A program made the translations under genes and the position numbers. Under the pieces are notes generated by a model. The model was not told the origin of the DNA. It saw only the letters and a list, made by a program, of their open reading frames with translations, and did not search any database. This document shows, piece after piece, positions 1 to 27,154 of a DNA stretch of 64,000 bases. Location of the stretch: positions 138,828 through 202,827 of the forward strand of contig CAVQBD010000002.1 in NCBI GenBank assembly GCA_963710645.1. Direction: 5' to 3'. How positions within the stretch are numbered: position 1 is the stretch's first letter; each line of letters starts with the position of its first letter. The DNA is from an uncultured Holophagae bacterium (GTDB lineage: Bacteria > Acidobacteriota > Thermoanaerobaculia > Thermoanaerobaculales > Sulfomarinibacteraceae).

Positions 1-3
1 CCC

Positions 4-4864
<4,861 letters not shown>

Positions 4865-4874
4865 TCGGTCACTG

Positions 4875-4916
4875 GTGAACGGTGAATAGTGAATAGTGAA
4901 TAGTGAATAGTGAATA
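4875..4916. repeat. Heptamer tandem array, GTGAATA x5 plus one degenerate unit
   Basis: Read directly from the DNA. It starts 11 nt after the TAG stop at 4862-4864. Confidence 0.95.
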
Positions 4917-4975
4917 GGGGGCAAGGGGGTAGGGGGCAGCCGAAAAAACGGTACAGGTCGCGGTGCGATGGAATC

Positions 4976-5089: not shown

Positions 5090-5142
5090 ATCTTGGATCT
5101 TGGATCTTGCATCTTGCATCTTGGATCTTAGATTTTGGATCT
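5090..5142. repeat. Heptamer tandem array, ATCTTGG/ATCTTGC, about 7.5 units
   Basis: Read directly from the DNA. It ends about 60 nt upstream of ATG 5202. Confidence 0.95.
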
Positions 5143-6653: not shown

Positions 6654-6690
6654 GGAATTAGAAATTAGAAATTAGAAATTAGAAATGTGA
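6654..6690. repeat. Heptamer tandem array, GAAATTA, about 5 units
   Basis: Located between convergent genes. A related degenerate array (CCCATTT CTATTTT CCCATTC TGCCTAT) at 6731-6760 abuts the stop of the minus-strand regulator. Confidence 0.9.
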
Positions 6691-8208: not shown

Positions 8209-8235
8209 TCGGTCGAAAGTCGAAAGTCGAAGGTT
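8209..8235. repeat. Heptamer tandem array, GTCGAAA, about 3.5 units
   Basis: It begins at the skp stop codon. The 11-mer AATAGTCGGTC, which contains the stop, is identical at 4860-4870 and 8204-8214. Confidence 0.9.
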
Positions 8236-8280: not shown

Positions 8281-8336
8281 CTGCCCGCTGCTCCCTGCCC
8301 CCTACTGCCTACTGCCTACTGCCTGCCGCCTGCCCG
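8281..8336. repeat. Heptamer tandem array, CTGCCCG/CTACTGC, 8 units
   Basis: CTGCCCG CTGCTCC CTGCCCC CTACTGC CTACTGC CTACTGC CTGCCGC CTGCCCG. Confidence 0.9.
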
Positions 8337-8423
8337 TTGGGCGGTTGGTCGGGCGGGGTTTTCGAATTTTACATTTCACATTTCGAATTGGGTGGGCGGG
8401 GGCCAGATATACTCGCCGCACCC

Positions 8424-11198
8424 ATGAGGCGCCTCACCCTCCCCGGATTGCGACTCGTCGCGCTGACCCTGGTGGTGGCGTTCTGGGCGGCCTTGGCCGC
8501 GGCCTCGGTGGAGGTTCTGGATCACCACGTTCCAGCCGAAGTGGAGCCGGGATCGAGGGCTACGGTAACGGTGGAGATCGCCAATCGAGGGGTTGATCCC
8601 TGGGATCCGGCGCTGGGGTACAAGCTCTCCTATCACTGGTTCGACGCAGACGGCGATGTGTTGGTATGGGATGGAGTGCGCACCGAGTTGTCGCGAGTCG
8701 TCGGAGTCGGAGAGGCGGTGGAACTCGAGGCTGTTATCGAGGTCCCCGGGCGGGAGGGCCGGCTTCAGCTGCAGTGGGACGTAGTCCAGGAGGGCCAGCG
8801 GTGGATGTCCGAGACCGACGATGCGACCGCGCGGCTCATAACGGTCGTCGCGGGCGTGGATTACGCATTTTCGATCGTGCGGGGCTCCGCCCCCCACCGC
8901 ATGGCGCCGGGCCGACGAACTGAACGTGAGCTGGTGGTTCGAAACGACGGCTCGCTGGAATGGCCGGCCGGGGCGGAAATCGCGGTCTCCTACCATTGGC
9001 TGACGCGGGACGGTGAGACTGTGGTGTGGGACGGGCTGCGGACGGCTCTGCCCACCAGAGTGTCTCCGGGACGCGAGGTCAAGGTCTCTGCCGTGGTGGA
9101 GGCACCAGGTCGATCGGGCAGGTATGAGCTGCAATGGGACCTGGTCCACGAGGGGGTTTTGTGGTTCAGCCAGCGGGATCCTTCGCCCGAGCCGCCATCA
9201 ACGGTTGCGGTGATGGGACTCGCCACCCTGGGGCTCGCAGGTTGGGCTGTGATCAGCCTGGGGCTTGCGATGGTGGCGGTTGTGGTTGCCGGCGGGCGGT
9301 TGCGACCGTTGGCCGGGTTGGTGGCGTTGGCGGACATCCCGTGGTGTGTCGCAGCCGTGATCGTGAAACAGAACGCCGTCCTGCTGGAGTTCGGACAGTC
9401 GCCGGGGTCGTGGTCCGTTCTTCTGACCGTGGCGGGGATTTTTGTGCTCTTGTTGCCGGCTCTGTTCTTTCCGCCGCGGTTTCGGGTGTGGTGCAGTTGG
9501 GTCCTGGCGGCCGTTGCTTCGGCGGTCCTGTACGCCGATCTGGTGTACGGGAGGTTCTTCGGTGACCTCCTGTCGGTGTCGGTGGCGGGCGCAGCGGGCC
9601 ACACCGACGAGGTGAGTGCCAGCATCATCAGCCTGCTGAGACCCGGTGACGTGTGGTTCTGGCTCGACCTTGTGGCCGGGGTCGTGCTGGTTGCCGCGGT
9701 GGCCCGGCTCGCCGCGATGCTCGATGAGCGGCCTCCGCGAGTTGTGGCCGGCGGGCTGGCGGCGGTCGTGATTCTCGGCGGGCTGGTGGCGATGTCCCTG
9801 GTCCGATCGCAGGCGGTCTCCGTCAGCCAGATCTTTCGTAACGTCTACCTCGCGAGGGAGATCGGCGTCCTCAATTTCCACGTCGTTGATGCTGGTGCGG
9901 GCCTGTTCCGGAGTGTTGAATCCGGTCCGCTTGATGAATCGGAGGTGGCGCGTCTGACGCAGTGGTTTGCCGACCGGTGGCCGTCGAGAACGGGTGTGGG
10001 GCCGGCTTTCGGTGCGGCGGCAGGTGCCAATGTGGTGATGGTGCAAGCCGAGTCGTTGCAGGCGTTCGTGCTCGGTCTTTCAGTCCGTGGCCAGGAGATT
10101 ACCCCATTCCTTAACCGCTGGTCCCAGAGTGCGCTGGTGTTTTCCAACGTCACCGACCAGACGGCACAAGGCCGGTCGTCCGACTCGGAACTCGCCACCC
10201 AGGTGTCGCTGTTGCCACCTCCCGCAGGGGCCGCGGCGTTCCTTTATGCGGGCAACGACTTCACCGGCATGGCCGGCATCCTGGACGGTCTTGGATATCA
10301 CACGCTGTCGGCGGTGGCGTTCGAGGCCTCGTTCTGGAATCGGCAGTTGACCCATGCCGGGTATGGCTACTCCGAGAGCCTCTTCGAGGGTGAATTCGAG
10401 GGCGGACCGGCCGTGGGATGGGGTCTGAACGACCGGAGTTTCTTCCAACAGATGGCCGGTCGGCTGGCCGGGCTGCCGGAGCCATTTTGCGCATATTTGT
10501 TGACCTTGTCGCTCCACCACCCCTTCGATGGTTTTCCTGAGCAGTTCAAAGAACTCGATCTGGGCGATCAGGAGGGACAACCGATTGGCAACTATCTCCA
10601 CACGATGCGGTTTTTTGACCGGGCCTTCGAAGCTCTGATCTCAGAGCTCGAGTCGACGGGGCTGGCCGAACGAACATTGGTGGTGGTCTGGGGGGACCAC
10701 GACGCGGGCTTCGAGTGGACGCCAGAGTTCGCGGCCCTGACCGGCCACAGGCCGGATCCGGTGGGCTGGTACCAGAGCCAAATGGTGCCGCTACTGATCA
10801 AAGTCCCGGGGGCCGAAGGACCGAGCGGCGATGTGGGGGCGCCGGCCGGACATCAGGATGTGGCGCCGACCCTTCTGGCATTGCTTGGAGTGGACCCGGC
10901 GCCGTATGCCTTCGTTGGTCGCAACCTGCTGGGCGATCCCGGCAGCGGTCCGGTGGTTGGCGAGTACCACTGTTGGCGTGACGCGCGGCACATTTTCCTC
11001 CAGGGCGGAGGTCGGCTGGAAGACGGAGAGTGCTTCATCCTGCCGGATCTCACACCGGTGGCCCCAGCGGCGTGTGCCGACGGATTCGCGGCCGCCATGG
11101 CTCAGGTCGATGCATCGCGGATCGTGCTCGAGCACGATCTGCAGGCGGAGATCCATCGGCGGTTGGTCAATGGAGATGGTGGGAAGGTGAAAAGGTGA
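8424..11198 (+). CDS. Membrane protein with two N-terminal Ig-like repeats and a C-terminal LTA-synthase/sulfatase (alkaline-phosphatase superfamily) domain
   Basis: ATG 8424 followed by a signal/TM segment. There is a duplicated roughly 110-aa module (YKLSYHWFDADGDVLVWDGVRT...LQLQWDVVQEG versus VSYHWLTRDGETVVWDGLRT...YELQWDLVHEG). A multi-TM block follows, then sulfatase-like motifs (VVMVQAESLQ, GWGLNDRSFF, LSLHHPF, VVWGDHDAG). Confidence 0.75.
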   Translation: MRRLTLPGLRLVALTLVVAFWAALAAASVEVLDHHVPAEVEPGSRATVTVEIANRGVDPWDPALGYKLSYHWFDADGDVLVWDGVRTELSRVVGVGEAVELEAVIEVPGREGRLQLQWDVVQEGQRWMSETDDATARLITVVAGVDYAFSIVRGSAPHRMAPGRRTERELVVRNDGSLEWPAGAEIAVSYHWLTRDGETVVWDGLRTALPTRVSPGREVKVSAVVEAPGRSGRYELQWDLVHEGVLWFSQRDPSPEPPSTVAVMGLATLGLAGWAVISLGLAMVAVVVAGGRLRPLAGLVALADIPWCVAAVIVKQNAVLLEFGQSPGSWSVLLTVAGIFVLLLPALFFPPRFRVWCSWVLAAVASAVLYADLVYGRFFGDLLSVSVAGAAGHTDEVSASIISLLRPGDVWFWLDLVAGVVLVAAVARLAAMLDERPPRVVAGGLAAVVILGGLVAMSLVRSQAVSVSQIFRNVYLAREIGVLNFHVVDAGAGLFRSVESGPLDESEVARLTQWFADRWPSRTGVGPAFGAAAGANVVMVQAESLQAFVLGLSVRGQEITPFLNRWSQSALVFSNVTDQTAQGRSSDSELATQVSLLPPPAGAAAFLYAGNDFTGMAGILDGLGYHTLSAVAFEASFWNRQLTHAGYGYSESLFEGEFEGGPAVGWGLNDRSFFQQMAGRLAGLPEPFCAYLLTLSLHHPFDGFPEQFKELDLGDQEGQPIGNYLHTMRFFDRAFEALISELESTGLAERTLVVVWGDHDAGFEWTPEFAALTGHRPDPVGWYQSQMVPLLIKVPGAEGPSGDVGAPAGHQDVAPTLLALLGVDPAPYAFVGRNLLGDPGSGPVVGEYHCWRDARHIFLQGGGRLEDGECFILPDLTPVAPAACADGFAAAMAQVDASRIVLEHDLQAEIHRRLVNGDGGKVKR

Positions 11199-11207
11199 GA
11201 AGGTGAG
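11176..11207. repeat. Period 7-8 array, (R)AAGGTG x4, overlapping the end of a CDS
   Basis: GGTGGGAAGGTGAAAAGGTGAGAAGGTGAGCGG. The TGA stop of the LtaS-like gene (11196-11198) lies inside the array. Confidence 0.8.
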
Positions 11208-11335
11208 CGGTCCCCCTCTCACCCGGAGCGTTCTTAGTGTCGGCCCTGGCACCGGGAGGCCCTGATAGCGGGACGAAGCGCCCGAAGTGTCGGCCCTGGC
11301 ACCGAGAGGGGCCCTTGTTCCATCTGGCACCGGGA

Positions 11336-11497
11336 GGCGCGTTCGGTTTGACTCGGTGATTTCGTCGCGCCCATCTCCCAACCGCGCTCCCCGCGGGAGC
11401 CACCCCTGACACTTATCGGGATCCGAGGACGTTGAGAACCCCAAGGGGACGACCCCGAAAGTGTCAGAAGTGGCACGCCCGCCCATCGCGCCCACAG
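11336..11497 (-). repeat. Dispersed roughly 160-nt repeat, copy A (inverted relative to copy B at 23806-23966)
   Basis: The reverse complement aligns by eye with 23806-23966. The shared cores are GGGCGCG(T)ATGGGCGGGCGTGCC and GTGTCAGGGGTGGC..C..CGGGGAGCGCGGTTGGGAGATGGGCGCG. Confidence 0.8.
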
Positions 11498-11651
11498 GCG
11501 CTCCGGATCGGTGAGGGCCACAACCCACAACCTACACCCTGGTCGGGCGGGGGAATTGACACTCCCGGTGCTTGCTTGTCCTATTGACTGTCGGCGGTGC
11601 CCTCCCTACGATGAACTGGTCCCGCCGCACCTCGGAATCAAAGGAGCCAAC

Positions 11652-12695
11652 ATGAATCAGAAGGCCGACAAGCTCAAGGCATTGGAGACCGCCATCGGGC
11701 AGATCGAACGGCAGTTCGGCAAGGGTGCGGTCATGCGCATGGGGGAGCAGCCGGGGATCCGGGTGAACATCATCCCCACCGGATCGATCGCTCTTGATGC
11801 GGCCCTGGGCGTGGGCGGTGTCCCCCGCGGCCGCGTGATCGAGATCTATGGGCCCGAGTCCTCCGGGAAGACGACCCTCGCCCTGCACGTGATCGCCAAT
11901 GCCCAGGCCACCGGCGGGCTGGCCGCGTTCATCGACGCGGAGCACGCTCTCGATCCGGAATATGCCGGCAAACTGGGGGTCAATCTGGACGAGCTCTTGA
12001 TCTCTCAGCCGGACTTTGGTGAACAGGCGTTGGAGATTGCCGAGACCTTGATCCGGTCGGGTTCGGTGGACGTCATTGTGGTGGACTCGGTGGCGGCGCT
12101 GGTCCCCAGGGCCGAACTCGAGGGCGACATGGGAGACGCGCAGATGGGACTTCAGGCCCGTCTGATGTCGCAGGCCCTGCGGAAGCTCGCGGGCATCGTC
12201 TCCAAGTCCAACACCAGCCTGGTTTTCATCAACCAGGTCCGGGAGAAGATCGGAGTCATGTTCGGCAACCCGGAGACCACCACCGGTGGCCGGGCCCTCA
12301 AGTTTTACAGCTCGGTGAGGATCGACATCCGGCGCACCAGCGCCATCAAACAGGGCGACGCGGTCATCGGCAACCGCACTAAGGCGAAGGTGGCCAAGAA
12401 CAAGGTCGCCGCACCATTCAAGATCGCCGAGTTCGACATTCTGTACGGTGAGGGGATCTCACGCACCGGCGAACTGCTGGATCTCGGTGTGGAGCACAAG
12501 CTGGTCCAGAAGTCGGGTTCCTGGTATTCGGCGGGGGAGACCCGGATCGGCCAGGGCCGTGAGGCGGCGCGGGCTTTTCTGGCCGAAAACTCTGAGTTGG
12601 CAGCGGAGATCGAGTACAAGCTGAGGGAGGCTCTGGGGCTGATTCCGACAAAGGAAACCAAGAGTCCGGATGCCGCTGAGAAACCCTCAGACTGA
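11652..12695 (+). CDS. recA: Recombinase RecA
   Basis: ATG 11652 follows an AAGGAG RBS. Walker [11 protein letters not shown], and the classic [16 protein letters not shown]-terminus. Confidence 0.97.
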
Positions 12696-12779
12696 GGTCC
12701 TCGGAATATCTGACCCCACCACACTGTGTTTTGATTGGCGGTGGCCCGGTGCGCCGCAGCGTTCTTCTGAGAGGTGAGC

Positions 12780-13904
12780 ATGAGTCCGAAATCCGCGTGG
12801 GCAGTGGTCATGATTCTGGCTGGGTTGGCGGTTGGAGTGGGAGCCGAAACTGCCGACCCGCCGGATCAGGATCCGGTACTGCTCCGTTTCATGGAACGTG
12901 CCATGACCTACTATCCGGACTCCACCTTCCGGGTGACTTCCATCGACCGCAGGCAGACACCGTCGGGTTCGTACCGCTTGGTCGAGGTCGACCGAGCGTG
13001 CGCAAACGACCGGCTCTCCGGTCCCCGGACCGTGGTGATTGACGACGTTTCGGATTTGGCGTGGTTTGGAAGCGCCGCCCAACTCCCACTGCAGGAAACC
13101 GGTGTCGGCGGCGATGCGTTGCGGAGCTTTCTCAACGAGTTCCTGCCCGGTGCCTTGAAATCGAGCCTGCGGATGAAGGCGACCCTGGACTGGTCCGACC
13201 CCCCTTACCGCAACGGCGCCTTACTGTCGTTTTGGCTGCTGGTGGACTCCGGCTACGGCGAGTACCGGAGGGCCGCTTCGGTCACCTCGGACGGAGCATA
13301 TGTGGTGCTCGGACCCGTCTACCCGCTCAACGTGGATCCGGTGGAGTATCGGCGCCGCTTGCTCTCTGACAGTGAGGTGGTGGTCTGGGATCATGTGGGC
13401 TCCGACGACGCCAAGGTGCAGATCGTGGAGTTTTCGGATTTCGAGTGCCCGGCGTGCCGGCGCACCTGGCCCACGGTCAAGACCGTGCTTGAAACCAAAG
13501 GCTCGACGGTCAGCCACGGGATGGTGAGCTACCCGCTGACCGTCATCCATCCGTGGTCCTTCCGGGCAGCGTCCGCATCGTGGTGCGTCAGCGCCCAGCA
13601 ACCGGATCTCATGCTGCCGTTCAAGGAGCTGTTCTACGATCTCCAGACTGAAATGGGTGTGTCGCTCGTAACCCCCACGGCAAACGACTTCGTGGCCGCC
13701 AATGGACTGGATGAGGTGGCTTTCGACGCCTGCTATTTGAAGTCGGAGTCCCTTGATGCCGTCCACCGCCAGATATCCCTCGCCCACGAGATCGGCATCA
13801 TTTCCACGCCCACCTATCTCGTCAACGGATATGTTCTCCAGGTTGTTGCAGAGGATTGGCTCGTGAAACTCATTGACGACCTGGCGGCCGGTGAGGAACC
13901 GTAG
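12780..13904 (+). CDS. Secreted thioredoxin-fold thiol:disulfide oxidoreductase (DsbA-like)
   Basis: Signal peptide (SAWAVVMILAGLAVGVGA) and a C-terminal thioredoxin-like domain with a CPAC active site (VEFSDFECPACRR). GTG 12774 is an alternative start. Confidence 0.7.
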   Translation: MSPKSAWAVVMILAGLAVGVGAETADPPDQDPVLLRFMERAMTYYPDSTFRVTSIDRRQTPSGSYRLVEVDRACANDRLSGPRTVVIDDVSDLAWFGSAAQLPLQETGVGGDALRSFLNEFLPGALKSSLRMKATLDWSDPPYRNGALLSFWLLVDSGYGEYRRAASVTSDGAYVVLGPVYPLNVDPVEYRRRLLSDSEVVVWDHVGSDDAKVQIVEFSDFECPACRRTWPTVKTVLETKGSTVSHGMVSYPLTVIHPWSFRAASASWCVSAQQPDLMLPFKELFYDLQTEMGVSLVTPTANDFVAANGLDEVAFDACYLKSESLDAVHRQISLAHEIGIISTPTYLVNGYVLQVVAEDWLVKLIDDLAAGEEP

Positions 13905-13906
13905 GA

Positions 13907-13988
13907 GAAAATTCGAAATTCGAAAACCCTCACCCTCCCGGTTGGGCGGGGGCCACTTCTCATTTCTCATTTCACATTTCTCATTTCC
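13907..13988. repeat. Heptamer arrays, AAATTCG x3 (13907-13927) and CATTTCT x5 (13954-13988), flanking a GGTTGGGCGGGGGCC motif
   Basis: The first array starts 3 nt after the TAG stop at 13902-13904. The second ends 7 nt before the sigma-54 -24 element. Confidence 0.9.
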
Positions 13989-13994
13989 CCCCCC

Positions 13995-14010
13995 GGCACA
14001 CCGATTGCAT
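13995..14010 (+). promoter_or_regulatory. Sigma-54 (-24/-12) promoter candidate for the small Cys protein and NuoEFG-like/GltD-HdrD operon
   Basis: CGGCACACCGATTGCA. GG at 13996-13997 and GC at 14008-14009 give canonical 12-nt register against TGGCAC-N5-TTGCW. It lies about 25 nt upstream of ATG 14034. Confidence 0.6.
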
Positions 14011-14033
14011 CGCCTCACACCAGGCGGTGGACC

Positions 14034-14276
14034 ATGGCCCAGCCAATTTTCGGGAGGGGTGACTGTCAAAGTTGCCGGTTCTTCATCGACGACCCTCACC
14101 AGTTGGAGAGGGTGCTCATCGGGGTTTTGGCGCTGTCCTCCACCTACGGTTCGACCCGCGGTGACAGCGGCATCTGCACCGTCCATGACACCTTCCAGTA
14201 CCCGTTGACCGACTGCGAACACTACCGTTCCCGAGACCGGTGTTTCGAGGTGGTGGCCGGAGATGTTACGCAATAG
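14034..14276 (+). CDS. Small Cys-rich hypothetical protein (80 aa)
   Basis: ORF 14034..14276 with G/C-rich third codon positions. Motifs CQSCRFF, GICTVHD and DCEHY. It lies directly downstream of a sigma-54-type promoter and overlaps the start of the next gene. Confidence 0.55.
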   Translation: MAQPIFGRGDCQSCRFFIDDPHQLERVLIGVLALSSTYGSTRGDSGICTVHDTFQYPLTDCEHYRSRDRCFEVVAGDVTQ

Positions 14277-16416
14277 TGACGGCGCCGGGTCCGGTCAGAT
14301 GATATCCGGGAGTTGGCAGGTGCAAAGCAAAGGCTCGACCCCCCGACCCGAACATCTGGCGGAGCTGGCGGATGATTTTCTGACCAGGTGTCGAGGCGAC
14401 GGACCAGCCAACTGCGCCGCCCGCTGTCCGCTGCACGTTGATGCTCACGGCTATATGCAGTTGACCCGCCTCGGCAGGTTTCGCGAGGCATTGCAGTTGA
14501 TTCGCGAGGAACTCCCGTTTCCGGGCATCCTGGGCCACGTGTGCGTCCATCCGTGTGAGCTGCACTGCAAGAGGATCGATACCGATTCGGCCGTTCGGAT
14601 CCGTGATGTGAAGCGTTTTCTCGCCCAATGGGAGCCCGGTGACCCGCAGCACGTGACCGATTGCCTCCCGTCGAAGGAACAGACCGTGGCCGTGGTGGGC
14701 TCCGGTCCGGCGGGGCTGATTGCCGGCTATGACCTCCGTCGCCAAGGCTACCGGGTGACGATTTTTGAAAAAGAGGACCGGATCGGCGGCTGTCTGACCC
14801 ACAGGATCCCGGAATGGCGGCTGCCGGCAGATGTGCGGCAGCGGGACCTGTCCATCGTCGATGCGGTGGGACTTGCCGTCGAGACGGGTGTGGAGGTCGG
14901 GAAGGACCTCAGCCTCGGCGAGCTCTGCGCCTCCCACCACGCCGTGCTTCTGGTGGTGGGCTTCGGTGGCGGGCAAATCCTGCTCGATCGGGAATCCTCC
15001 AGCCTTCGCCGGTCGGCACGTCAGACGATAATGGTGAATCCAAACACCGGCATGTCGGACATCGAGGGTGTGTTCGCCGGTGCTGATGCCGTGACCGGGC
15101 CTGGGACGGTGATCCACGCTCTGGCGTGGGGTCGGAGGTTGGCCAGGTCGGCGGAGAAGTTCCTCGACGGCCGAGACCCGGCCGAGGACCAATGGTCCCA
15201 CCGCCCGCCACCCCTGTTGTGGCGCCTCGAGGTGGACGAGGCCGAGCGACGTCGGCGAGAGCGACCGCCGGTGATGCTGCGACCGCCTCCAGAGGAGATG
15301 ACCGAGGCCGAAGCGGTGGCAGAGGGCGAGAGATGTCTCGACTGTGTCTGTGGACTCTGCACGGTTGAGTGCGAATTCCTGGCCAAGTATTGCGATGTGC
15401 CGAGGCAGCTGGCTGCAAAGATCCGGGACGGTCCGGAGCATCACCTCGACATGGTCTATTCCTGTAACCTGTGTGGTCTCTGCCGCCAGGTCTGTCCGGT
15501 GGACCTGGACACAGGTGAGTTGATGCTCGAGGCGAGACGGCGTGCTGTGCGCAGTGGGGTCGCTCCGCTTGATCGTCACCGCAAGGAATTGCGGTTCTTT
15601 CGACTGGGCGTCTCCAAGACCTTCTCGCTGGCAGCTCCGGAGCCGGGCCGCCGCACGGCCAACAGTTTGTTCTTCACCGGTTGCTCGTTGCCGGCCTCCT
15701 CCCCTGAAAACACCCTCCGCCTTTACCAGGAACTGCGACGCCTTTCCCCCGGCATCGGTGTTCTGATGCACTGTTGCGGTGCGCCGGCATTCGCCATCGG
15801 GATGGAGGAGGAAGCTCGCTCCGCCCGGCAAAACGTGCTGGAGATGGCCCAGAGCCTCGGTGCCGACGAGCTGATCGTGGCGTGTCCCGGGTGCCAGAAA
15901 ACCCTTGACCAGCCCGATTTCGGCCTCAAGGTGCGGTCCGCCTGGCAGCTCCTGGCCGAGTCCTGGTCACCTGAGGTGGACTGGAAGGGGCTCGACGTTT
16001 CGGTGCACGATCCGTGCGTGGCCCGTCACGACGCCGCCACCCAAGACGCGGTGCGATTGCTCATCAACGGGACCGGTGCAAGGACCGTCGACTTGGAGGC
16101 CTCGGGGGAGGACACGAGGTGCTGCGGTCTTGGCGGGAGGATTGGCGGCGTGGATCCCCAGCTTTCCCGGGCGGTTGCACAACGGCGGGTGGCCGAGGCC
16201 TCGGATCCGATCGTCACCTACTGCACGAGGTGCCGGGCCGCACTGCAGAGCGGTGGGGGAGCTCCGGTCCACCTCCTGGAACTATTGTTCGCCAATGATC
16301 TGGAGAGGGCCCTGGCCAGAAAACCGCTGGGTGCCATTCGGCGCTATGCCAATCGTTTGTTGGCCAAGAGATCATTGCGCCGTGGCCCGCTCACCGGCCG
16401 GGTGCAGGGCGGATGA
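14263..16416 (+). CDS. GltD/DsrL-like NAD(P)H flavoprotein fused to an HdrD/GlpC-like module (2x[4Fe-4S] and 2 CCG domains)
   Basis: N-terminus matches the glutamate-synthase small-subunit pattern (CAARCPLHVD...FPGILGHVCVHPCELHCKR; dinucleotide fold VAVVGSGPAGL...IFEKEDRIGG). Two ferredoxin motifs follow (CLDCVCGLCTVEC, CNLCGLCRQVCP). Two CCG motifs complete it (HCCGAP...ACPGC and CCGLGG...YCTRC). Confidence 0.75.
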   Translation: MLRNSDGAGSGQMISGSWQVQSKGSTPRPEHLAELADDFLTRCRGDGPANCAARCPLHVDAHGYMQLTRLGRFREALQLIREELPFPGILGHVCVHPCELHCKRIDTDSAVRIRDVKRFLAQWEPGDPQHVTDCLPSKEQTVAVVGSGPAGLIAGYDLRRQGYRVTIFEKEDRIGGCLTHRIPEWRLPADVRQRDLSIVDAVGLAVETGVEVGKDLSLGELCASHHAVLLVVGFGGGQILLDRESSSLRRSARQTIMVNPNTGMSDIEGVFAGADAVTGPGTVIHALAWGRRLARSAEKFLDGRDPAEDQWSHRPPPLLWRLEVDEAERRRRERPPVMLRPPPEEMTEAEAVAEGERCLDCVCGLCTVECEFLAKYCDVPRQLAAKIRDGPEHHLDMVYSCNLCGLCRQVCPVDLDTGELMLEARRRAVRSGVAPLDRHRKELRFFRLGVSKTFSLAAPEPGRRTANSLFFTGCSLPASSPENTLRLYQELRRLSPGIGVLMHCCGAPAFAIGMEEEARSARQNVLEMAQSLGADELIVACPGCQKTLDQPDFGLKVRSAWQLLAESWSPEVDWKGLDVSVHDPCVARHDAATQDAVRLLINGTGARTVDLEASGEDTRCCGLGGRIGGVDPQLSRAVAQRRVAEASDPIVTYCTRCRAALQSGGGAPVHLLELLFANDLERALARKPLGAIRRYANRLLAKRSLRRGPLTGRVQGG

Positions 16417-18944
16417 CGAGCCTGAGAAACGTGCGGGTCACGGTCGATGGAACGCCGGTCGACGTGCCGGTGGGCCGCTCTCTGCTGCAGGTCTTGCGAG
16501 ATCTTCGCGTACGCGTTCCGACCCTCTGTCATGACGACCGACTCACTCCCTACGGAGGATGTCGGCTGTGTGTGGTGGATCGAAGGGACGGTAACCGCGG
16601 TCTAGTGACCGCCTGCTCCACCCCAGTGGAGGAGGGGATGGTCGTGAGGACCCGGACGCCGGAGATCGTGGAGTCCCGGAGGCGGCAGCTGCAGCTGCTT
16701 TTGCTCAACCACCGGCTCGACTGTCCGGTGTGTCAACGCAACGGCGACTGTCGGTTGCAGGACCTGATCTACGAAATCGGCGTGCCGGACGAAGATCTGC
16801 CCTTTGAATCAACCCCGGTACCGGCGGACGACCCCTCGCCGATCATCCTTCGTGATCCTGGAAAGTGCATCGTTTGCGGGCGCTGTGTGCGACTGTGCGA
16901 GGAGGTGCAGGGCGTCGCGGCCATCGGTTTCAAGGGCAGGGGATTGGAGCTGCGGGTGGCGACCTTCGACGGTCGCCCGCTGGACTGTGAGTTCTGCGGC
17001 CAGTGCGTGAACGCGTGCCCGGTTGGAGCCCTCACGACGCGGACCGACGGTTCGGATGTGCCGGCCTGGTTGCGGGAGTCGGTCACCACGACCTGCGGTT
17101 TCTGCAGTTGTGGATGCCAGCTCACCGTGGAGTCAGACGAGGGCCGGCTGCAGCGAGTGACCTCTGCGCCGGGGAGTTCGCCCAACAACGGAAAGCTGTG
17201 TGTCAAGGGGTGGCTCGGGCATGACCTCTTGGCCGACCCCGATCGGTTGACAGAACCGCTGGTCCGCCGGGGTGGTCGGCTCGTTGCTGTTGGTTGGTCC
17301 GAAGCCTTGGCAGCGGCGGTTGCCGGAATCGAAGCCGCCGCGGGTTCGGGGCGGCCCGTGGTGGGTCTTGGAAGTGGCAGGCTGAGTTGTGAGGACGGCT
17401 ATCTGCTCCAGCGGTTCATGCGGGGTGTGCTGTCGTCGCCCCACGTGGCCCTCGCCCCCACCGGTGGTGTGGAAGCGCTGGTGGACGGGCTCGGCCGGGT
17501 TCTGACCCGGGCGGCCTCCACCGGCAGTTTCCAGAGCTTGGCGGAGGCCGATCTCGTGGTGGTTCTGCGTGCGGACCCGGGCCGCACCCATCCTCTGGTC
17601 AAGACGGAGATCGTCCAAGGGGTTCAGCAGCGCGGCCAACGGCTGATTCTGGCTCACGCCCTGTCGGGTGGTCTCGAGCGACACGCCGAAAGTTACGTGC
17701 GGTTGGAGCCGGGGTCGGAGGCCGATCTATTGGGAGGTGTGACCAGGGCGCTGCTCGAAGAACGGCCGGTTCTCGAGCATCGCATCGAGGAGATTCCTGG
17801 AGCGCGGGGATTTGTCGACAGTCTGGCCGGTTACACCGAGGGTTGGGTCTGCAGGCGGACGGGAGTGCCGGTAACTGAGTTTCGCCGGCTCGTACACCTC
17901 CTACTCCAGGCCCGCCGTCCCCAGTTGGTGGTTGTCACGGGTCTCGGAATTCCCGGTGACGAGGCGGCCGTTTCCCGGGCTGCCGTTCAACTGAGTGCTC
18001 TTCTTCCTGGGAATGGGGGCGTGCTGGTGCTCGGCGAAAAGGCCAACGTTCAGGGCCTGGTGGATGTTGGAGTCCACCCCCGGCTGCTTCCCGGACACCG
18101 CCCGGCATCGGATATCTCGGCCCGGGAGGATCTGACGGCCCTCATTGGATGCGATTTTGCGACCGGCGTTGGCTGGACGGCGCGCGAGGCATGTGATGCG
18201 GCGGTGGAAAGGGAGGTGGGCGCTCTGCTGCTTGCGGGTGTGGACCCGGTGCGGAATTTCCCCAGGGAGTATCAGGGTCGTGCCGCGGTGGACGGCGCCG
18301 GATTCGTGATCTGCCTCGACGCCTTTCCCACCGAATCCGCACGGATGGCGGACGTGGTGCTGCCGGTGGCGATCCTCGCCGAGCGAGATGGGAGTACGGT
18401 GGGATTGGACGGGGTCCGGCGGTCGTTGCGGCAAGCGCTCGCGCCACCGGTTCCCTTGCCCGGGGATGGTGATCTGTTGCGCCAGCTGGCGGTTCTGATG
18501 GGGTCCGACCTACCGGCGGGGGGGCGGCTCTCCAGTGAGATGGAGCGGGTGGTGGGATGGCCCTATCCCACCGCAGCTCTCCGGCGCCTGCTGCCGGCAC
18601 CGGAATCGGGAGGCGGCCTCGGCTGGTCGGGCATCCTGCTCGATGGATCGCCTCAGCTCTTTCACTCCGGCTCGGTGACGACCCGTAGCGCGAACCTCAG
18701 GGAGCTTGCTCCGCCTGTGGCCCTGCGTCTCCATCCGGAAGATGCTCTCGAGCTGGACGTGGGAGCCGGAGACGTGATTTCGGTGGCCAGCGGAGGCCGC
18801 GAGCTCCTGCTCCGGGCGAGAGTGGACTCCACGGTCCGCCGAAGCACGGCAGTCGTGCTTTGGGGGGCGGGCCGCCACGGAGCGTCGGAGCTGATGGACA
18901 GCGAATCACAGCCGGTCGCCGTCACCCTCCGGAGGTCCCGGTGA
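16413..18944 (+). CDS. NuoG/FdhA-like Fe-S protein with a molybdopterin-oxidoreductase-like domain that appears to lack a catalytic Cys/Sec
   Basis: ATGA overlap with the upstream gene. 2Fe-2S (CHDDRLTPYGGCRLC), CPVCQRNGDCRLQ, CIVCGRCVRLC, CEFCGQCVNACP and the CGFCSCGC...GKLCVKG cluster. The stretch where FdhA has its active-site C/U-H reads SSPHVALAPTGG, by my eye alignment. Confidence 0.7.
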   Translation: MTSLRNVRVTVDGTPVDVPVGRSLLQVLRDLRVRVPTLCHDDRLTPYGGCRLCVVDRRDGNRGLVTACSTPVEEGMVVRTRTPEIVESRRRQLQLLLLNHRLDCPVCQRNGDCRLQDLIYEIGVPDEDLPFESTPVPADDPSPIILRDPGKCIVCGRCVRLCEEVQGVAAIGFKGRGLELRVATFDGRPLDCEFCGQCVNACPVGALTTRTDGSDVPAWLRESVTTTCGFCSCGCQLTVESDEGRLQRVTSAPGSSPNNGKLCVKGWLGHDLLADPDRLTEPLVRRGGRLVAVGWSEALAAAVAGIEAAAGSGRPVVGLGSGRLSCEDGYLLQRFMRGVLSSPHVALAPTGGVEALVDGLGRVLTRAASTGSFQSLAEADLVVVLRADPGRTHPLVKTEIVQGVQQRGQRLILAHALSGGLERHAESYVRLEPGSEADLLGGVTRALLEERPVLEHRIEEIPGARGFVDSLAGYTEGWVCRRTGVPVTEFRRLVHLLLQARRPQLVVVTGLGIPGDEAAVSRAAVQLSALLPGNGGVLVLGEKANVQGLVDVGVHPRLLPGHRPASDISAREDLTALIGCDFATGVGWTAREACDAAVEREVGALLLAGVDPVRNFPREYQGRAAVDGAGFVICLDAFPTESARMADVVLPVAILAERDGSTVGLDGVRRSLRQALAPPVPLPGDGDLLRQLAVLMGSDLPAGGRLSSEMERVVGWPYPTAALRRLLPAPESGGGLGWSGILLDGSPQLFHSGSVTTRSANLRELAPPVALRLHPEDALELDVGAGDVISVASGGRELLLRARVDSTVRRSTAVVLWGAGRHGASELMDSESQPVAVTLRRSR

Positions 18945-21379
18945 TTGTCCACCCCTCCGGGGTCTCCACTGGCTATTACGGATCGCAGCCATCGGTGCCC
19001 CTGGAACCTGCGGTGGTGGATCTGGTGGACGCCTTCTTGTCCGCCAATCCGGGGGGTCGGGAGAGGTTGATTCCACTGTTGCAGTGCGTTCAGGACGAAG
19101 TCGGCCACCTACCCGTCGAGGCTCAGGAGCTGGTGGCAGATCGTCTGGCCATGTCACCGATCCAGGTCGCAGGAGTGGTCAGCTTCTACGATCTGTTCAC
19201 CCTCACGCCGCGGGCACCATTCGAAATCCGGGTCTGCGCGGGGACCGCCTGCCACGTTCAGGGTGGCGAAAGGGTGCTCGATGCGCTCACCGACGCTCTT
19301 GGAGTGACTGCCGGTGGCATCTCGGCAGACGGGTTGTTCAACCTCGAGCGAGGCCACTGCATCGGTGCCTGCGCCCTGGCCCCAGCGGTGATGGTCAACG
19401 GAGTTGTCCACGGGCGAATGACGGCCGGATCGGTGCGGCGGCTGGTGAGTCGGTTGCGTCACTCGGTCAAGGCTGCGGCGGAGCGGCCCGGTTCCATGGG
19501 TGCCGTCCGGTTGAGCCCTATGGGAGGCCTGTGGCGGAGCGCCCGTTGGCTGCCGACCGATGCATCCGGTGATGAAATCGGTGTGCGCACGATCCAGATC
19601 TGTTCAGGAAGCGGTTGCCTCGCCAACGGAGCTTTGGAGGTGGCGGAAGCCCTCAAGGCCTGTCTCCGCCGGCTGCGACGGGATGGTGGCCCGCGAGGTG
19701 CTTCGGTGGATCGGGTCAGGATAGAACTTGGAATCACTGGCTGTCGTGGCTTCTGCGCCGCCGGACCCCTGGTGAAGATCCCTGAAGTCGGTGTCCTGTA
19801 CTGCGGTGTAGGGGTCGACGACGCCGACGAGATCATCCAGAAGACGGTGTTCCAGGGTCACGTCATTCCGCGGCTGATATTTGGCGGCACAACTGGCGAC
19901 GGAAGGTACCGCAGCCAAGACGATATTCCCTTCTTCTCCGGCCAACAGCGACATGTGCTCGGGCTCTGCGGTGAAATCGACCCCGAGCGTATCGAACAAT
20001 ACGAATCTCAGGGTGGTTACCTGGCACTCGAACGGGTTGTCCGGGAATTCCGGCCGGACCAGGTGATCCAGCGGGTGATGGAATCCGGGTTGGTGGGTCG
20101 AGGCGGTTCCGGATTTCCGACCGGACGGAAGTGGCAGTTGGTCGCCGACGCCCCGGACGAGACCAAGGTCGTCATCTGCAATGGTGACGAAGGCGATCCC
20201 GGGGCGTTTATGGACCGCAGCTTGATGGAGGGCGACCCCCATTCGGTGCTGGAGGGAATGGCCATAGCGGGCTATGCGGTGGGCGCCCACATCGGCTACG
20301 TCTACCTGCGCGCCTCCTACGAGATGGCGGTGAGGAGAATGTTGCACGCCGTCGCGCAGGCACGTGAGCGCGGTTTTATCGGGGACGATGTCATGGCCAG
20401 CGGATACCACTTCGATGTCCGGATCGTGCAAGGTGGCGGCGCTTTCGTGTGCGGCGAGGAAACCGCGCTCATAGCCTCCATCGAGGGGCGACGAGCCATG
20501 CCCAGGACCCGTCCGCCACATCCTGCGACCCGCGGCCTGTGGGGACACCCCACGTTGATCAACAACGTCGAGACTCTGGCCAACATCCCGCAGATCTTGA
20601 TGCCGAGAAACCAACGGGGAGCCGGCCGCGCTACGACCAAGACGTTTGCGCTCACCGGTGCTGTTCGCAACGTCGGGCTGGTGGAGGTCACTCTGGGCAC
20701 CTCCCTGCGGGAGATCGTGTTCGGCATAGGTGGCGGACTGGCCGAGGGGCGAACATTCAAGGCGGCATGGATCGGCGGACCCGGAGGTGGGTGTCTCGGA
20801 GAGCCCCAACTGGACACCCCCATCGACTATGACTCCCTGGAGGAACAGGGAGTGGCCATGGGTTCGGGTGGGTTGGTGGTGGTGGACGACCGTACCTGCT
20901 CCGTTCGGCTGGCGCGTTTCATGCTCGCGTTTTGCGTCGAAGAATCGTGTGGCAAGTGTTCGCCCTGCCGAATCGGAACGCGGGTTCTGCTCGGTCTGCT
21001 GACTCGCGTCAGCGAGGGTGAGGGGCGGGCGGGAGACCTGGAGAGAATCGAACGCCTCGGAGAACACGTGCACAGGACATCTCTCTGTGGACTGGGACAG
21101 TCGGCCCCAATGCCGGTTCTGACTGCGCTCCGCCATTTCCGTTCGGAGTTCGAATCCCACCTCAACAGCCGCAGTTGCCCCGCCGGGGAGTGCTACCGGT
21201 TGTTGGATCTGCGTATCGATGCCGAATTGTGCGAGGGCTGTGGAGACTGCGTCGTGGTCTGTCCGGAGCAGGCGATCGTGGGAGAACCCGGTTCGAGCTA
21301 CGCCATCGACCTCGACCGATGCAACCGCTGCGGGCTATGTATCCACTGCTGCCCGTACGATGCTATCGAAACAGTGTAA
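18941..21379 (+). CDS. NuoE-like/NuoF-like fusion flavoprotein with an extra 2Fe-2S domain and a C-terminal 2x[4Fe-4S] ferredoxin domain (HydB/HydC- or Bfu-type)
   Basis: GTG 18941 overlaps the upstream TGA. NuoE motif (VCAGTACHVQG...GHCIGACALAP) and a second thioredoxin-like 2Fe-2S (CSGSGCLANG...GCRGFCAAGP). NuoF motifs GRGGSGFPTGRKW, CNGDEGDPGAFMDR and SCGKCSPCR...LCGLG. Ferredoxin motifs CEGCGDCVVVCP and CNRCGLCIHCCP. Confidence 0.8.
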   Translation: MIVHPSGVSTGYYGSQPSVPLEPAVVDLVDAFLSANPGGRERLIPLLQCVQDEVGHLPVEAQELVADRLAMSPIQVAGVVSFYDLFTLTPRAPFEIRVCAGTACHVQGGERVLDALTDALGVTAGGISADGLFNLERGHCIGACALAPAVMVNGVVHGRMTAGSVRRLVSRLRHSVKAAAERPGSMGAVRLSPMGGLWRSARWLPTDASGDEIGVRTIQICSGSGCLANGALEVAEALKACLRRLRRDGGPRGASVDRVRIELGITGCRGFCAAGPLVKIPEVGVLYCGVGVDDADEIIQKTVFQGHVIPRLIFGGTTGDGRYRSQDDIPFFSGQQRHVLGLCGEIDPERIEQYESQGGYLALERVVREFRPDQVIQRVMESGLVGRGGSGFPTGRKWQLVADAPDETKVVICNGDEGDPGAFMDRSLMEGDPHSVLEGMAIAGYAVGAHIGYVYLRASYEMAVRRMLHAVAQARERGFIGDDVMASGYHFDVRIVQGGGAFVCGEETALIASIEGRRAMPRTRPPHPATRGLWGHPTLINNVETLANIPQILMPRNQRGAGRATTKTFALTGAVRNVGLVEVTLGTSLREIVFGIGGGLAEGRTFKAAWIGGPGGGCLGEPQLDTPIDYDSLEEQGVAMGSGGLVVVDDRTCSVRLARFMLAFCVEESCGKCSPCRIGTRVLLGLLTRVSEGEGRAGDLERIERLGEHVHRTSLCGLGQSAPMPVLTALRHFRSEFESHLNSRSCPAGECYRLLDLRIDAELCEGCGDCVVVCPEQAIVGEPGSSYAIDLDRCNRCGLCIHCCPYDAIETV

Positions 21380-22898: not shown

Positions 22899-23588
22899 AT
22901 GGCAGGCACAGGGTGGAGCAGCAGGTGGTGGAAGCCCGCAGCCGGGGTGGCAGGGGTTGCGGTGGGAATATTGCTGGCCTGGCGGTTTGGCGCCTTTGAC
23001 CTGCTTACGGTTGACAACATCGACCGAATGGACCGGTGGTTCGACGTTCTTGGGATCTGGGCGCCGGTGGTCTTCATCCTGCTGTGGGTCGCAGCGGCGG
23101 TCTTCTTCCTTCCGGGGCTTCCCATATCCATCGCCGGGGGCCTGATCTTCGGTGCCGTCTGGGGCACCGTCTACACCACAATCGGCGCCAACCTGGGCGC
23201 GGCCGCAGCTTTTCTCATCGGCCGCTACCTGGCGCGGGACATGGTGGAGGGCCAGATCGAGAACAACGCCTCCCTGGTAAAAATCGACGAAGGCGTGAGG
23301 CGTCACGGCTGGCGCATGCTCATGATCACCCGGCTGGTGCCGGTCTTCCCCTTCAACATTCAGAACTACGTCTACGGTCTGACCGACATCGGACTCGGCA
23401 CCTACGTGTTGGTCAGTCTGGTGTGCATGGTGCCCGGGACCGTTGCCTACAACTTCGCGGCCGGCTCGGTCCGCACCGGGGATCTCGGCATGACCCTCTG
23501 GTATCTCGGAATCGCGGCCGTATTCTTCGTGCTGCTGTCGTTGCTGCCGGGGTGGATCAAGAAGCGGTATGGCGCAGGGGTGGAATAG
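22899..23588 (+). CDS. TVP38/TMEM64 (DedA-related, SNARE-associated) membrane protein
   Basis: Motifs FLPGLPISIAGGLIFG, GANLGAAAAFLIGRYLARD and RLVPVFPFNIQNYVYGLT. Confidence 0.75.
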   Translation: MAGTGWSSRWWKPAAGVAGVAVGILLAWRFGAFDLLTVDNIDRMDRWFDVLGIWAPVVFILLWVAAAVFFLPGLPISIAGGLIFGAVWGTVYTTIGANLGAAAAFLIGRYLARDMVEGQIENNASLVKIDEGVRRHGWRMLMITRLVPVFPFNIQNYVYGLTDIGLGTYVLVSLVCMVPGTVAYNFAAGSVRTGDLGMTLWYLGIAAVFFVLLSLLPGWIKKRYGAGVE

Positions 23589-23595
23589 GGTTCAA

Positions 23596-23782
23596 GTTGA
23601 AAGTCGAAAGTCGAAAGTCCCACCGGTCCAGGAGGCCAACAACTCGGGACTCGGGACTCGGGACTGAGGACTCGGGACTCGTCCCCCGCCCTCCCTCCCG
23701 GGACGACAACAGGGCGCGATGGGCGGGCGTACCACTCCGGGCACCTTCAAGTTGAAAGTTGAACGTTAAACGTTGAACGTTC
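23596..23782. repeat. Composite of heptamer arrays: GTYGAAA x3 (23596-23616), ACTCGGG x6 (23642-23683), AAMGTTG x5 (23748-23782)
   Basis: Each array is followed by CCC.CCCTCCCTCCC-GGACGACAACAGGGCGCG-ATGGGCGGGCGT. This makes a roughly 150-nt super-unit present twice in tandem (about 23590-23745 and 23746-23835). Confidence 0.85.
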
Positions 23783-23805
23783 CCACCCTCCCTCCCAGGA
23801 CGACA

Positions 23806-23966
23806 ACAGGGCGCGTATGGCGGGCGTGCCGTCTCTGACGATTTTGGGTTGAGGTCGAACAGTCTGCGTGTCGCGACGAGTCCCGAACAGTGTCAGGGGT
23901 GGCAACCTCGGGGAGCGCGGTTGGGAGATGGGCGCGTCGAAGCCGGTGAATCGAACCGTACGCCCG
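23806..23966 (+). repeat. Dispersed roughly 160-nt repeat, copy B
   Basis: See copy A at 11336-11497. The ORF-track translations of both loci share ...CQGW.PRGARLGDGR...ESNRT.... Confidence 0.8.
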
Positions 23967-24081
23967 TGCCCGGGTTCCGGCGCCAGCGGCAGCGTTCAGC
24001 GACAGTAACCAGCGACAGCAACCAGGCAACAGCGATCCGGGGGAGCGGCCGAACGGCTCACAGGGCGGGCGGCGGATCGAA

Positions 24082-24183
24082 CATCCAGGATCCAGCATCG
24101 AACATCCGGCATCCGGCATCCGGGTGGGCGGTGGATCTTGAATCTTGAATCTTGGGTCTTGCATCTTGGGTCTTGCATCTGGT
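24082..24183. repeat. Heptamer arrays, CATCCGG x6 (24082-24123) and ATCTTGR/GTCTTGC x7 (24135-24183)
   Basis: The arrays are separated by GGGTGGGCGGTGG. The second array belongs to the same unit family as 5090-5142. Confidence 0.9.
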
Positions 24184-24441
24184 CGGGTGGGTGGGGGCCC
24201 GGCGTTACGCGCTGGGAACGGCAAGAACGCCGGTGTCACAGCCAAATCCCAGGGTTCCGGGCGCCCTTTTGCGAAAGGCACAAGCGACAGCCGGCCCCAA
24301 GCCTTTCACCAACCGCGATTTCCGACGGTGGAGAGGGTTGGTGGGTGATCCGGGGAGACTCGAAATCATACCGTTTTCCTAAGGAATAGGAATTGCTCAA
24401 TTGTCCGGGGATGAGGTGTGCCTGTGGGCGATGGATCGAAT

Positions 24442-24471: not shown

Positions 24472-24529
24472 ATCGACTATCTCAATATTCCAGAAGAGAA
24501 TTCGGTATGATGGGCGAGGAGTGCTACTG

Positions 24530-27066: not shown

Positions 27067-27070
27067 GTCA

Positions 27071-27126: not shown

Positions 27127-27154
27127 GTCGGAAGCTGACAGCATCAAATGATCA

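Follow-up and report, generated by a model that had tools for sequence, protein, structure and literature searches.

Copies of a hairpin-forming intergenic repeat of about 180 nt were found at two inverted sites, 12.3 kb apart, in a 64,000-nt stretch of DNA from an uncultured Holophagae bacterium (hereafter the window). The family is previously undescribed and is restricted to one uncultured Holophagae (Acidobacteriota) lineage. On balance, we favour the reading that the two copies (A and B) and a third one at the window edge belong to a non-autonomous mosaic interspersed repeat of the REPIN/ERIC/BOX kind, which would be propagated or exchanged via a single-stranded intermediate.

The original prediction described an inverted repeat of roughly 160 nt, and the match between A and B proved to be real, with a similarity far above chance in the repeat search, in blastn and against shuffles. 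In the unbiased search, the top inverted repeat of the window (I1) paired 11332-11421 with 23881-23970 over 90 nt (81% complementary), and two further arms (I5 and I3) paired the 5' block of copy A with 23809-23848 and 23712-23748. The formal alignment of A against B by blastn covered 93 nt at 81.7% identity (E ~1e-19), well over background, and the 5' blocks of the copies matched over 37-40 nt at 78-86%. The three sequence blocks on which the prediction had been based were all found. The 27-mer GGGGAGCGCGGTTGGGAGATGGGCGCG was the same in both copies (shuffle expectation 0), the 15-mer AGTGTCAGGGGTGGC showed no difference between them, and GGGCGCGATGGGCGGGCGTGCC had 0 mismatches at 11472, 1 at 23712 and 3 at 23809. 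The longest identical run common to A and B was 28 nt and lay in blocks of about 80% identity. The match had been expected to extend along the whole copy, and this was correct for two outer blocks only: the reverse complement of 11339-11519 aligned with 23782-23963 at ~80-86% identity on both sides of a centre of ~40-45 nt, the hairpin apex, which could not be aligned. Therefore, A and B do not match over their full length. The features of the window are listed in Table 1.

Table 1. Coordinates of the repeat units and accessory modules in the window.
Feature	Position	Strand	Basis
Copy A, full type-1 unit (leader, 5' box, long hairpin, 27-mer box, tail)	11339..11519	-	R1
Copy A 5' box (L5) GGGCGCGATGGGCGGGCGTGCC	11472..11493	-	exact pattern match
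Copy A long hairpin GCCACUUCUGACACUUUCGGGG...CCCGAUAAGUGUCAGGGGUGGC, stem subfamily a	11399..11474	-	MFE fold and covariation
Copy A 27-mer box GGGGAGCGCGGTTGGGAGATGGGCGCG	11366..11392	-	identical to that of copy B
Copy B, full type-1 unit	23782..23963	+	R1, fold, alignment
Copy B 5' box (L5)	23809..23830	+	3 mismatches to pattern
Copy B long hairpin	23828..23903	+	fold and family covariation
Copy B 27-mer box	23910..23936	+	exact match
Third copy, cut by window edge (leader, 5' box, 5' arm only)	1..75	-	R1
Tandem module beside copy A, two and a half direct CGGTGCCAGGGCCGACACT copies (PAL2 type)	11224..11338	-	repeat search
Left arm of imperfect inverted pair, CCCCCTCTCACCCGGAGCG	11212..11230	+	I2
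Right arm of imperfect inverted pair, CGCTCCGGATCGGTGAGGG; overlaps copy A leader	11499..11517	+	I2
Heptamer array CCACAAC x2.7, abuts copy A leader	11518..11536	.	TRF
Short L5-only module (leader, 5' box, mini-hairpin)	23685..23748	+	D5
Heptamer array GTTGAAC x4.4, between short module and copy B	23751..23781	.	TRF

A covariance model (R1) was built from 17 full copies. It matched copy A over its full length with 172.4 bits (E 1.7e-40) and copy B with 177.6 bits (E 8.8e-42). The MFE fold of copy A placed the long hairpin on the - strand (-84.7 kcal/mol), and the hairpin of copy B was present in the + strand fold and mostly lost on the - strand, so that in each copy the long hairpin folds on one strand only. 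Copy B looks chimeric, with the 5' arm and apex of stem subfamily b and the 3' arm of subfamily a. The search with the covariance model also revealed the window-edge copy, which was not part of the original prediction. This copy scored 41.4 bits (E 2.8e-8) over model positions 1-75 with its 3' end truncated, and its stem is close to subfamilies d/e.

Copy A lies in the spacer between a sulfatase-domain gene (8337-11198, + strand) and recA (11652-12695, + strand), and a recA promoter-like site, TTGACT-17-TACGAT at 11584-11612, is found just beyond the element. The spacer that holds copy B, 930 nt long, runs from a DedA/VTT gene (22899-23588, + strand) to a two-gene DsrMK-like unit. The DsrK-like gene of this unit (25429-27066) scored 321 bits, which is under the NCBIfam cutoff of 400 bits, and is followed by a TmcD-family gene. 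The copies thus occupy the places that had been assigned to them, upstream of recA and upstream of DsrMK-like genes. A protein-coding reading was rejected, in agreement with the earlier view that the element carries no convincing ORF: single-nucleotide indels separated the copies in the alignment, and the ORFs that overlap them (10791-11528 and 23766-24281) were both left uncalled by a GC3-based caller.

The full (type-1) unit is composed, from 5' to 3', of a heptamer array, a C-rich leader, a 5' box, a hairpin, a linker, a 27-mer box and a tail. Read in this direction, the unit is on the - strand at copy A and on the + strand at copy B. The 7-nt unit of the heptamer array varied by site. The leader had the consensus CCCGCCCACCCGGAGCG and the 5' box the sequence GGGCGCGATGGGCGGGCGT. 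The long stem-loop of ~75 nt with its 21-bp stem began with GCC and finished with GGC, the linker between the stem-loop and the 27-mer box read TCCCTC or AACCTC, and the tail of ~27 nt was looser. The region of the 5' box GGAGCGAGGTGGGCGCGATGGGCG and the part of the 27-mer given by GGAGCGCGGTTGG-GAGATGGGCG were imperfect direct repeats of each other, identical at 20 of 24 positions, and this similarity was equalled by 4 of 2,000 shuffles. The conserved boxes, G-rich and ~22-27 nt in length, were not palindromic. A target-site duplication as the source of the two similar boxes was rejected: variation in the 5' box is not tied to the 27-mer, which does not vary.

Most loci were retrieved by an exact match within the 27-mer, and the 99% identity of the 27-mer in those copies is a consequence of this retrieval. 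Seven bycatch copies, which were found by the model alone, served as the unbiased set. In these copies the identity was 88.7% in the 5' box, 88.4% in the 27-mer, 81% in the stems (with compensation), 79% in the leader, 70% in the tail and 45% in the loop. These values indicate that the two boxes are the best-conserved parts of the unit, though they are variable. The idea of an invariant 27-mer under extreme constraint was downgraded for the same reason, as the unbiased copies reached 88%.

The secondary structure was clearly supported by the alignment of the 17 full copies. Standard pairs filled 97.1% of the cells, compared with 44-50% when the 3' partners were slid by 1-3 columns. Compensatory changes were found in 8 of the 19 pairs of helix 5, the long hairpin, and the other helices had no double changes. 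None of 500 shuffles attained any of the observed structure measures. There were at least seven stem subfamilies with largely different interiors and a conserved stem base, and a G·G mismatch at the fourth position was common to four of them. These results are in line with the earlier suggestion of a structured element. Among the non-Watson-Crick cells, G·U occurred 49 times in 17 columns, compared with 2 A·C in 2 columns; with the 17 and 2 columns taken as events, the binomial probability was ~4e-4. This strand-specific excess of G·U indicated that the structure matters when single-stranded and on one specific strand. The private stem substitutions were few (6 Watson-Crick, 4 G·U, 2 A·C and 5 other), numbers too small to assess a bias.

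Taken as a whole, the unit folded as an imperfect rod with one-sided changes only in its outer helices. RNAalifold paired the C-rich leader with the 27-mer (94-97% paired, one-sided changes only), and an alternative local hairpin of the leader and the 5' box was 76% paired with one swapped pair. In copies with altered 27-mers, the leader pairing was compensated in one and uncompensated in several. Since the leader is able to pair with either the 5' box or the 27-mer, alternative conformers are possible.

The element had been described as dispersed and non-coding, and its multi-copy nature was evident in related DNA. A 20-mer from the 27-mer had 21 exact matches on 12 contigs of the MAG "uncultured Holophagae bacterium MFD03804.bin.1.68" (CAWCOD01, a GTDB representative); the window is a relative of this MAG from a different genome. 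The same 20-mer occurred in a co-sampled bin, on a single short contig, and once by chance in Rudanella. A 19-mer hit a few soil metagenome contigs, with 7 true copies in all, besides three sites that were due to chance. The chance matches (L012 in Rudanella, L024, L032, L033 and L034) were dropped. With R1, ~45 sense-strand matches were obtained in 301 kb of retrieved DNA, in which full units scored 120-204 bits and the reverse strand of the hairpin alone ~20 bits. All copies lay between genes as called by the rough GC3-based caller, so the family is extragenic and of high copy number, with at least 21 exact core matches in the MAG. A phage or viral origin was rejected, as the sole match in a viral collection was a chance one inside a coding region with 9 bits by the covariance model.

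No known RNA family accounted for the element. The whole window gave 0 matches to Rfam 15 at gathering thresholds, and a permissive scan of both copies and two composite loci returned only noise (Guanidine-II at 15, pRNA at 18 and mir-1271 at 23 bits). A σ70-type scan of copies A and B found no σ70-like promoter or intrinsic terminator, and the sequence upstream of the leader differed among copies; an own σ70 transcription unit or σ70-driven sRNA gene was rejected on these grounds. A σ54 promoter in the PAL modules that contain TGGCAC was also rejected, since the GG-to-GC spacing, judged by eye, is one nucleotide short. Relative to the neighbouring genes (rough GC3-based caller), 8 copies were sense-tandem, 8 antisense-tandem, 8 convergent and 3 divergent, with no significant difference from the background. 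The orientation is therefore random with respect to genes, and a UTR-type cis-regulator was rejected. Relative to the local GC skew, the orientation was 10 against 15, without bias, and A (- strand) and B (+ strand) both lie in a stretch of uniformly positive skew, which led us to reject a replication-oriented ssDNA element. IS200/IS605-type ssDNA transposons are usually orientation-biased with respect to replication. Integron attC sites have RYYYAAC...GTTRRRY core sites and occur once per cassette, in a single orientation and near intI. An attC identity was rejected here, as the orientation is random, the neighbours are housekeeping genes and the alignment holds no core sites.

The units were accompanied by further recurring modules, among them a second box variant, GCCGGCGGCAGCGGTTGTGGCCGTGGCCG, and a hairpin with GGTGCCAGGCACC arms. 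Composites of the form box-hairpin-box-hairpin reached ~450 nt, as in L5-hairpin-CORE27b-hairpin-CORE27-PAL hairpin, and the units within them were in tandem, not alternating in orientation. Near-identical cores carried different leaders and tails. The CGGTGCCAGGGCCGACACT module recurred with the units and makes the tandem beside copy A. This internal tandem, which had been noticed earlier, was recovered with 11224-11259 and 11274-11309 at 83% identity (D9) and a third piece of 15 nt at 11324-11338; PAL2 matches were at 11236 and 11286. In the MAG, the CGGTGCCAGGGCCGACACT module formed an inverted pair (L001, 4815/4887), compared with the direct copies beside A. On the side of copy B, a partial third copy had been proposed. 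A match was indeed present, with 88% identity between 23685-23733 and the 5' block of copy B, but it belongs to a recurrent short module and is not a truncated copy: the order of short module, GTTGAAC-type heptamers and full unit was found in the window and in L002, L007, L008, L020 and L025. The GTTGAAC heptamer stood in the same place in MAG and metagenome loci. The arms of the I2 pair (19 nt, 74% complementary, 268 nt apart) bracket the whole copy-A composite, and the leader of copy B is able to pair with a G-rich box 380 nt downstream. Both arrangements fit the idea that units sit within C-rich/G-rich hairpins that have been split. Such C-rich/G-rich boxes are common here, and the bracketing and the leader matches could be fortuitous.

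Comparison with the MAG revealed a fast turnover of the spacers. The MAG locus L007 is the ortholog of the sulfatase-recA-trx-hdr region of the window and is collinear with it, with successive segments at 95, 83 and 76% identity. The coding flanks of the compared spacers aligned at 76-95% though the modules between them differ. In the sulfatase|recA spacer, the window carries copy A and its tandem module, compared with only a GGTGCCAGGCACC-type hairpin in the MAG; L007 is without copy A, and homology restarts exactly at GGGAATTGACAC upstream of recA. In the trx|hdr spacer, the window has a simple hairpin and two heptamer arrays (CCCTCACCCTCCCGG TTGGGCGGGGGCC), and the MAG has a composite of ~480 nt, bordered on either side by sequence alignable with one half of the window hairpin. 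The first ~330 nt of this composite are arranged like 23685-23963 of the window, at a non-orthologous site. One copy was retained in place, at the orthologous loci L002 (MAG) and L028 (metagenome). Its stems differ at exactly two pairs, and both changes are compensated. Identity is 39% in the apex, 85-96% in the boxes and tail and 80-90% in the coding flanks, and the strand of the element carries a canonical terminator, GCAGGCCTCTGGCCTGCATTTT, ~45 nt further downstream.

Hallmarks of a classical mobile element were also searched for. Pfam analysis of 15 ORFs adjoining copies or lying between inverted pairs found no transposase, only ordinary genes or no match. In tblastn with IS200 TnpA and RAYT sequences, no hit below E 0.1 was obtained in ~300 kb, which is ~5% of a genome, and both of these negatives are weakly informative; none of the R1 matches in 301 kb was a copy with a long ORF-bearing insert. 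The copies showed no target-site duplication, their flanks being unrelated heptamer arrays and modules around unit ends that are not sharply defined, so that a very short duplication could have escaped notice, and clean terminal inverted repeats were not seen. The earlier proposal of a candidate MITE therefore agrees with the dispersed, non-coding and multi-copy nature of the element, but the evidence falls short of a strict MITE, as a clean TIR, a TSD, a parent IS and a transposase were all missing from this search.

Several features together point to a non-autonomous interspersed repeat: the many copies, the mosaic modules, the random orientation, the lack of own transcription signals, the fast spacer turnover and the strand-specific hairpin structured into subfamilies. 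The unit would spread or be exchanged between intergenic regions via an ssDNA or RNA intermediate, and a factor whose gene lies at another place in the genome may recognise its hairpin and flanking boxes. The unit may land in, or recombine with, the C-rich/G-rich terminator-like hairpins of the intergenic spacers of this lineage. Once settled, it would behave like REP, ERIC or BOX and form a stable hairpin in any transcript that crosses it, by which neighbours such as recA or the DsrMK-like operon might be affected. Against a mobile repeat count the missing transposase or partner, clean TIR and TSD, the lack of a skew bias and the lack of a clean filled-versus-empty site. Moreover, the compensated copy of L002/L028 fits selection in place at least as well as mobility. 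Alternatively, the units may be structured RNAs that act in place and are transcribed from a non-σ70 promoter or within neighbouring mRNAs, a reading that we consider possible but doubtful. The hairpin and boxes would then be a platform for binding or processing, e.g., by an RNase or RNA chaperone, or would serve in 3'-end stabilisation, in termination that needs no U-tract or as a small RNA precursor. The strand-specific G·U bias is what selection on RNA or ssDNA predicts, the stem covaries strongly, and the leader could switch between the boxes. At L002/L028, the two compensated pairs are accompanied by a randomised apex and by boxes and a tail that are at least as identical as the coding flanks, and the terminator lies downstream on the same strand; this pattern could, however, also arise by replacement with another subfamily member. 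Furthermore, of the copies between co-directional genes half are antisense (8 against 8), no promoter-like sequence is conserved upstream, A and B have no terminator, the private stem changes (4 G·U, 2 A·C and 5 other) show no clear structure-preserving bias, and Rfam holds no relative.

A related and unlikely reading is a new type of single-stranded module that is kept in place by compensatory evolution, either as an RNA platform with a leader that switches between the boxes or as the substrate of an undescribed mobility system. As a platform it would act in processing, termination or protein docking. The mobility system would aim at terminator-like hairpins, at their G-rich arm, and would build the intergenic regions of this lineage jointly with the heptamer arrays peculiar to each locus. 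It is still more improbable that the units are duplex-DNA sites for a host protein (a nucleoid-associated protein, gyrase or IHF) or cruciform insulators in which the hairpin is incidental. Gyrase or IHF sites are known at E. coli BIMEs. The best-conserved parts of the unbiased copies, the boxes (88.7 and 88.4%), do lie outside the stem and are direct repeats of each other, and the orientation follows neither the genes nor the direction of replication, all as such a site would have it, but neither compensatory stem changes across at least seven subfamilies nor the one-strand prevalence of G·T over A·C (49:2) is predicted by a duplex-DNA site. We regard it as very improbable that A and B are a substrate of homologous recombination that inverts the 12-kb segment from recA to dedA, as the original prediction had suggested. 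The copies are inverted and share the 28-nt run. Against such an exchange, 28 nt lies close to the lower length limit of RecA-dependent recombination, and the remaining identity is only ~80% around an unalignable centre. The MAG is collinear over the left breakpoint and is without copy A. Each genome has dozens of copies, which lie in both orientations, and the A/B pair does not stand out among them.

To our knowledge, most bacterial clades carry some intergenic repeat family of the REP/ERIC sort, and the present family, though previously undescribed, is a familiar REP/ERIC/BOX-type intergenic repeat and unsurprising in kind. It resembles the ERIC/IRU elements of enterobacteria (127-bp imperfect palindromes) in its size class (~130-180 nt), in its long imperfect hairpin, in being extragenic and in either orientation to transcription, in its conservation between related species and in having no known transposase. 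However, the sequences are unrelated, the most conserved parts of the Holophagae family are direct-repeat boxes outside the stem, and this family has many compensated stem subfamilies and units that are joined to modules and heptamer arrays. With BOX of Streptococcus pneumoniae (boxA-boxB(n)-boxC) and the E. coli BIMEs (mosaics of REP/PU and linkers) it shares the modular mosaic build, the many intergenic copies and the strong predicted secondary structure; the modules and the sequences are different. In BIMEs, moreover, the modules alternate, whereas those of the Holophagae family mostly have the same orientation (box-hairpin-box-hairpin), and the repeated unit of REP/BIME is an imperfect palindrome of 20-40 nt, compared with ~180 nt and a ~75-nt stem-loop here. 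The Correia/NEMIS MITEs of Neisseria are likewise short, non-coding, multi-copy and intergenic and form a hairpin when transcribed, but in the Holophagae family no defined TIR, TSD or related full-length IS was seen. Unlike IS200/IS605-type elements (PATEs), it has no replication-strand bias (10 against 15).

REPINs are paired REP sequences that are mobilised by RAYT Y1 transposases (Bertels and Rainey, 2011; PMC3116915). The likeness lies in the single-stranded long hairpin with a conserved hairpin-proximal sequence and a less conserved apex (PMC3116915), in the maintained structure and in the non-autonomous nature with tens to hundreds of copies. The difference is that a REPIN consists of two inverted REPs of ~20-25 nt, whereas here the stem is variable and the conserved boxes are direct repeats, and that no RAYT was found in the ~300 kb examined here. 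Heptamers are also known from other intergenic elements, as multicopy intergenic sequences of Geobacter metallireducens contain tandem heptanucleotide repeats (PMC2700814), and TAACTGA repeats occur in Beggiatoaceae and cyanobacteria (PMC4679880). Those systems and the present one have in common abundant intergenic 7-nt arrays beside or in multicopy elements of unknown function. There, one or a few heptamers prevail; the arrays of the Holophagae lineage, which flank C-rich/G-rich hairpins, almost all differ in their unit.

These results document a structured repeat family, with a covariance model and clear covariation, for an uncultured Acidobacteriota (Holophagae) lineage. The family remodels promoter-proximal spacers, in the window those immediately before the recA promoter and before a DsrMK/Tmc-like operon. 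Its strand-specific structure, random orientation and rapid turnover make it a tractable case for the spread and upkeep of REP/ERIC-like elements. In practical terms, elements of this kind lead to assembly breaks and spurious ORF calls, of which the two ORFs that overlap copies A and B are examples.

When the window was compared with L007, the orthologous locus of the related Holophagae MAG, the identity dropped in steps from the sulfatase gene to the Hdr-like gene, as shown in the table. This stepwise shift suggests recombination or transfer, in which the breakpoints would lie in the repeat-filled spacers.

A common intergenic layout in the window runs from the stop codon of a gene through a 7-nt tandem array and a C-rich/G-rich hairpin into a second 7-nt array, and the same layout was present at the loci of the Holophagae MAG. 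The hairpins between the arrays were often real terminators with a T-run. The TRF listing for the window had 61 rows, about 24 of them with a period of 7. The 7-nt unit was distinct at almost every site and a few units, such as GTGAATA, AAGAACG, and GTTGAAC, recurred across sites. The copy number of an orthologous AAATTCG array was ×2.4 versus ×3 between the window genome and the MAG.

Coordinates of the compared regions and repeat features
Feature	Sequence	Coordinates	Detail
Region compared with L007	window	8894-16466	
Sulfatase gene	window vs. L007		identity 95.4%
recA-trx	window vs. L007		identity 82.8%
Hdr-like gene	window vs. L007		identity 76.5%
Array-hairpin-array sites	window	4882-4917, 5090-5142, 6656-6686, 8212-8231, 8301-8331, 8366-8384, 13909-13925, 13957-13987	
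Array-hairpin-array sites (continued)	window	23594-23681, 24082-24180, 27070-27128, 27209-27233, 27555-27572, 27818-27843, 57813-57834, 59450-59467	
Energy-metabolism neighbourhood	window	14263-21379, 24521-29354	
Direct repeat D4	window	27155-27226, 27501-27572	perfect, 72 nt, spacing 346 nt
8-nt tandem repeat	window	11173-11207	GAGAAGGT ×4.4
Pairing segment of tandem repeat	window	11211-11223	
Hairpin I6	window	11173-11207 with 11211-11223	
Loci on the near-identical contigs	L015; L020	5981-6145; 141-304	
Module after orthologous element	L002; L028	1330-1450; 11950-12070	about 100 nt

The window also holds a neighbourhood of energy-metabolism genes, in which an HdrA/HdrD-like gene encodes FAD/NAD(P)-binding, 4Fe-4S, and CCG (cysteine-rich) domains in one protein and is followed by genes for a NuoG/formate-dehydrogenase-like molybdopterin protein and a fused NuoE-NuoF-like protein. 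Farther along, a TmcD-family protein and a DsrK-like protein, the latter scoring below the family cutoff, are encoded, and the membrane protein encoded upstream of the DsrK-like gene had no family match. The spacer 3′ of this gene contains the direct repeat D4, each copy of which consists of an intrinsic terminator (CCGCCCACCCGCGTGGGCGGTTTTTT) and an AAGAACG heptamer array.

An 8-nt tandem repeat overlaps the 3′ end of the sulfatase ORF, including its final codons and stop codon. It pairs with the segment behind it to form the small hairpin I6, which is followed by a T-rich run on the minus strand. This structure could be a minus-strand terminator downstream of copy A of the element; the terminator scan did not flag it.

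The contig L020 comes from the sample that also yielded the Holophagae MAG and was assigned to a 'Candidatus Sulfomarinibacteraceae' bin; it carried two element copies and was near-identical to contig L015 of the MAG over hundreds of bases. Mis-binning or duplication of L020 is the probable explanation, rather than a second host lineage. Immediately 3′ of the orthologous element in L002 (MAG) and L028 (metagenome) lies a module whose long inverted repeat (ATTGTGGAGC...GCTCCACAAT) flanks a canonical terminator (GCAGGCCTCTGGCCTGCATTTT). Between these two loci the module was 94% identical and the coding flanks were 80-90% identical.
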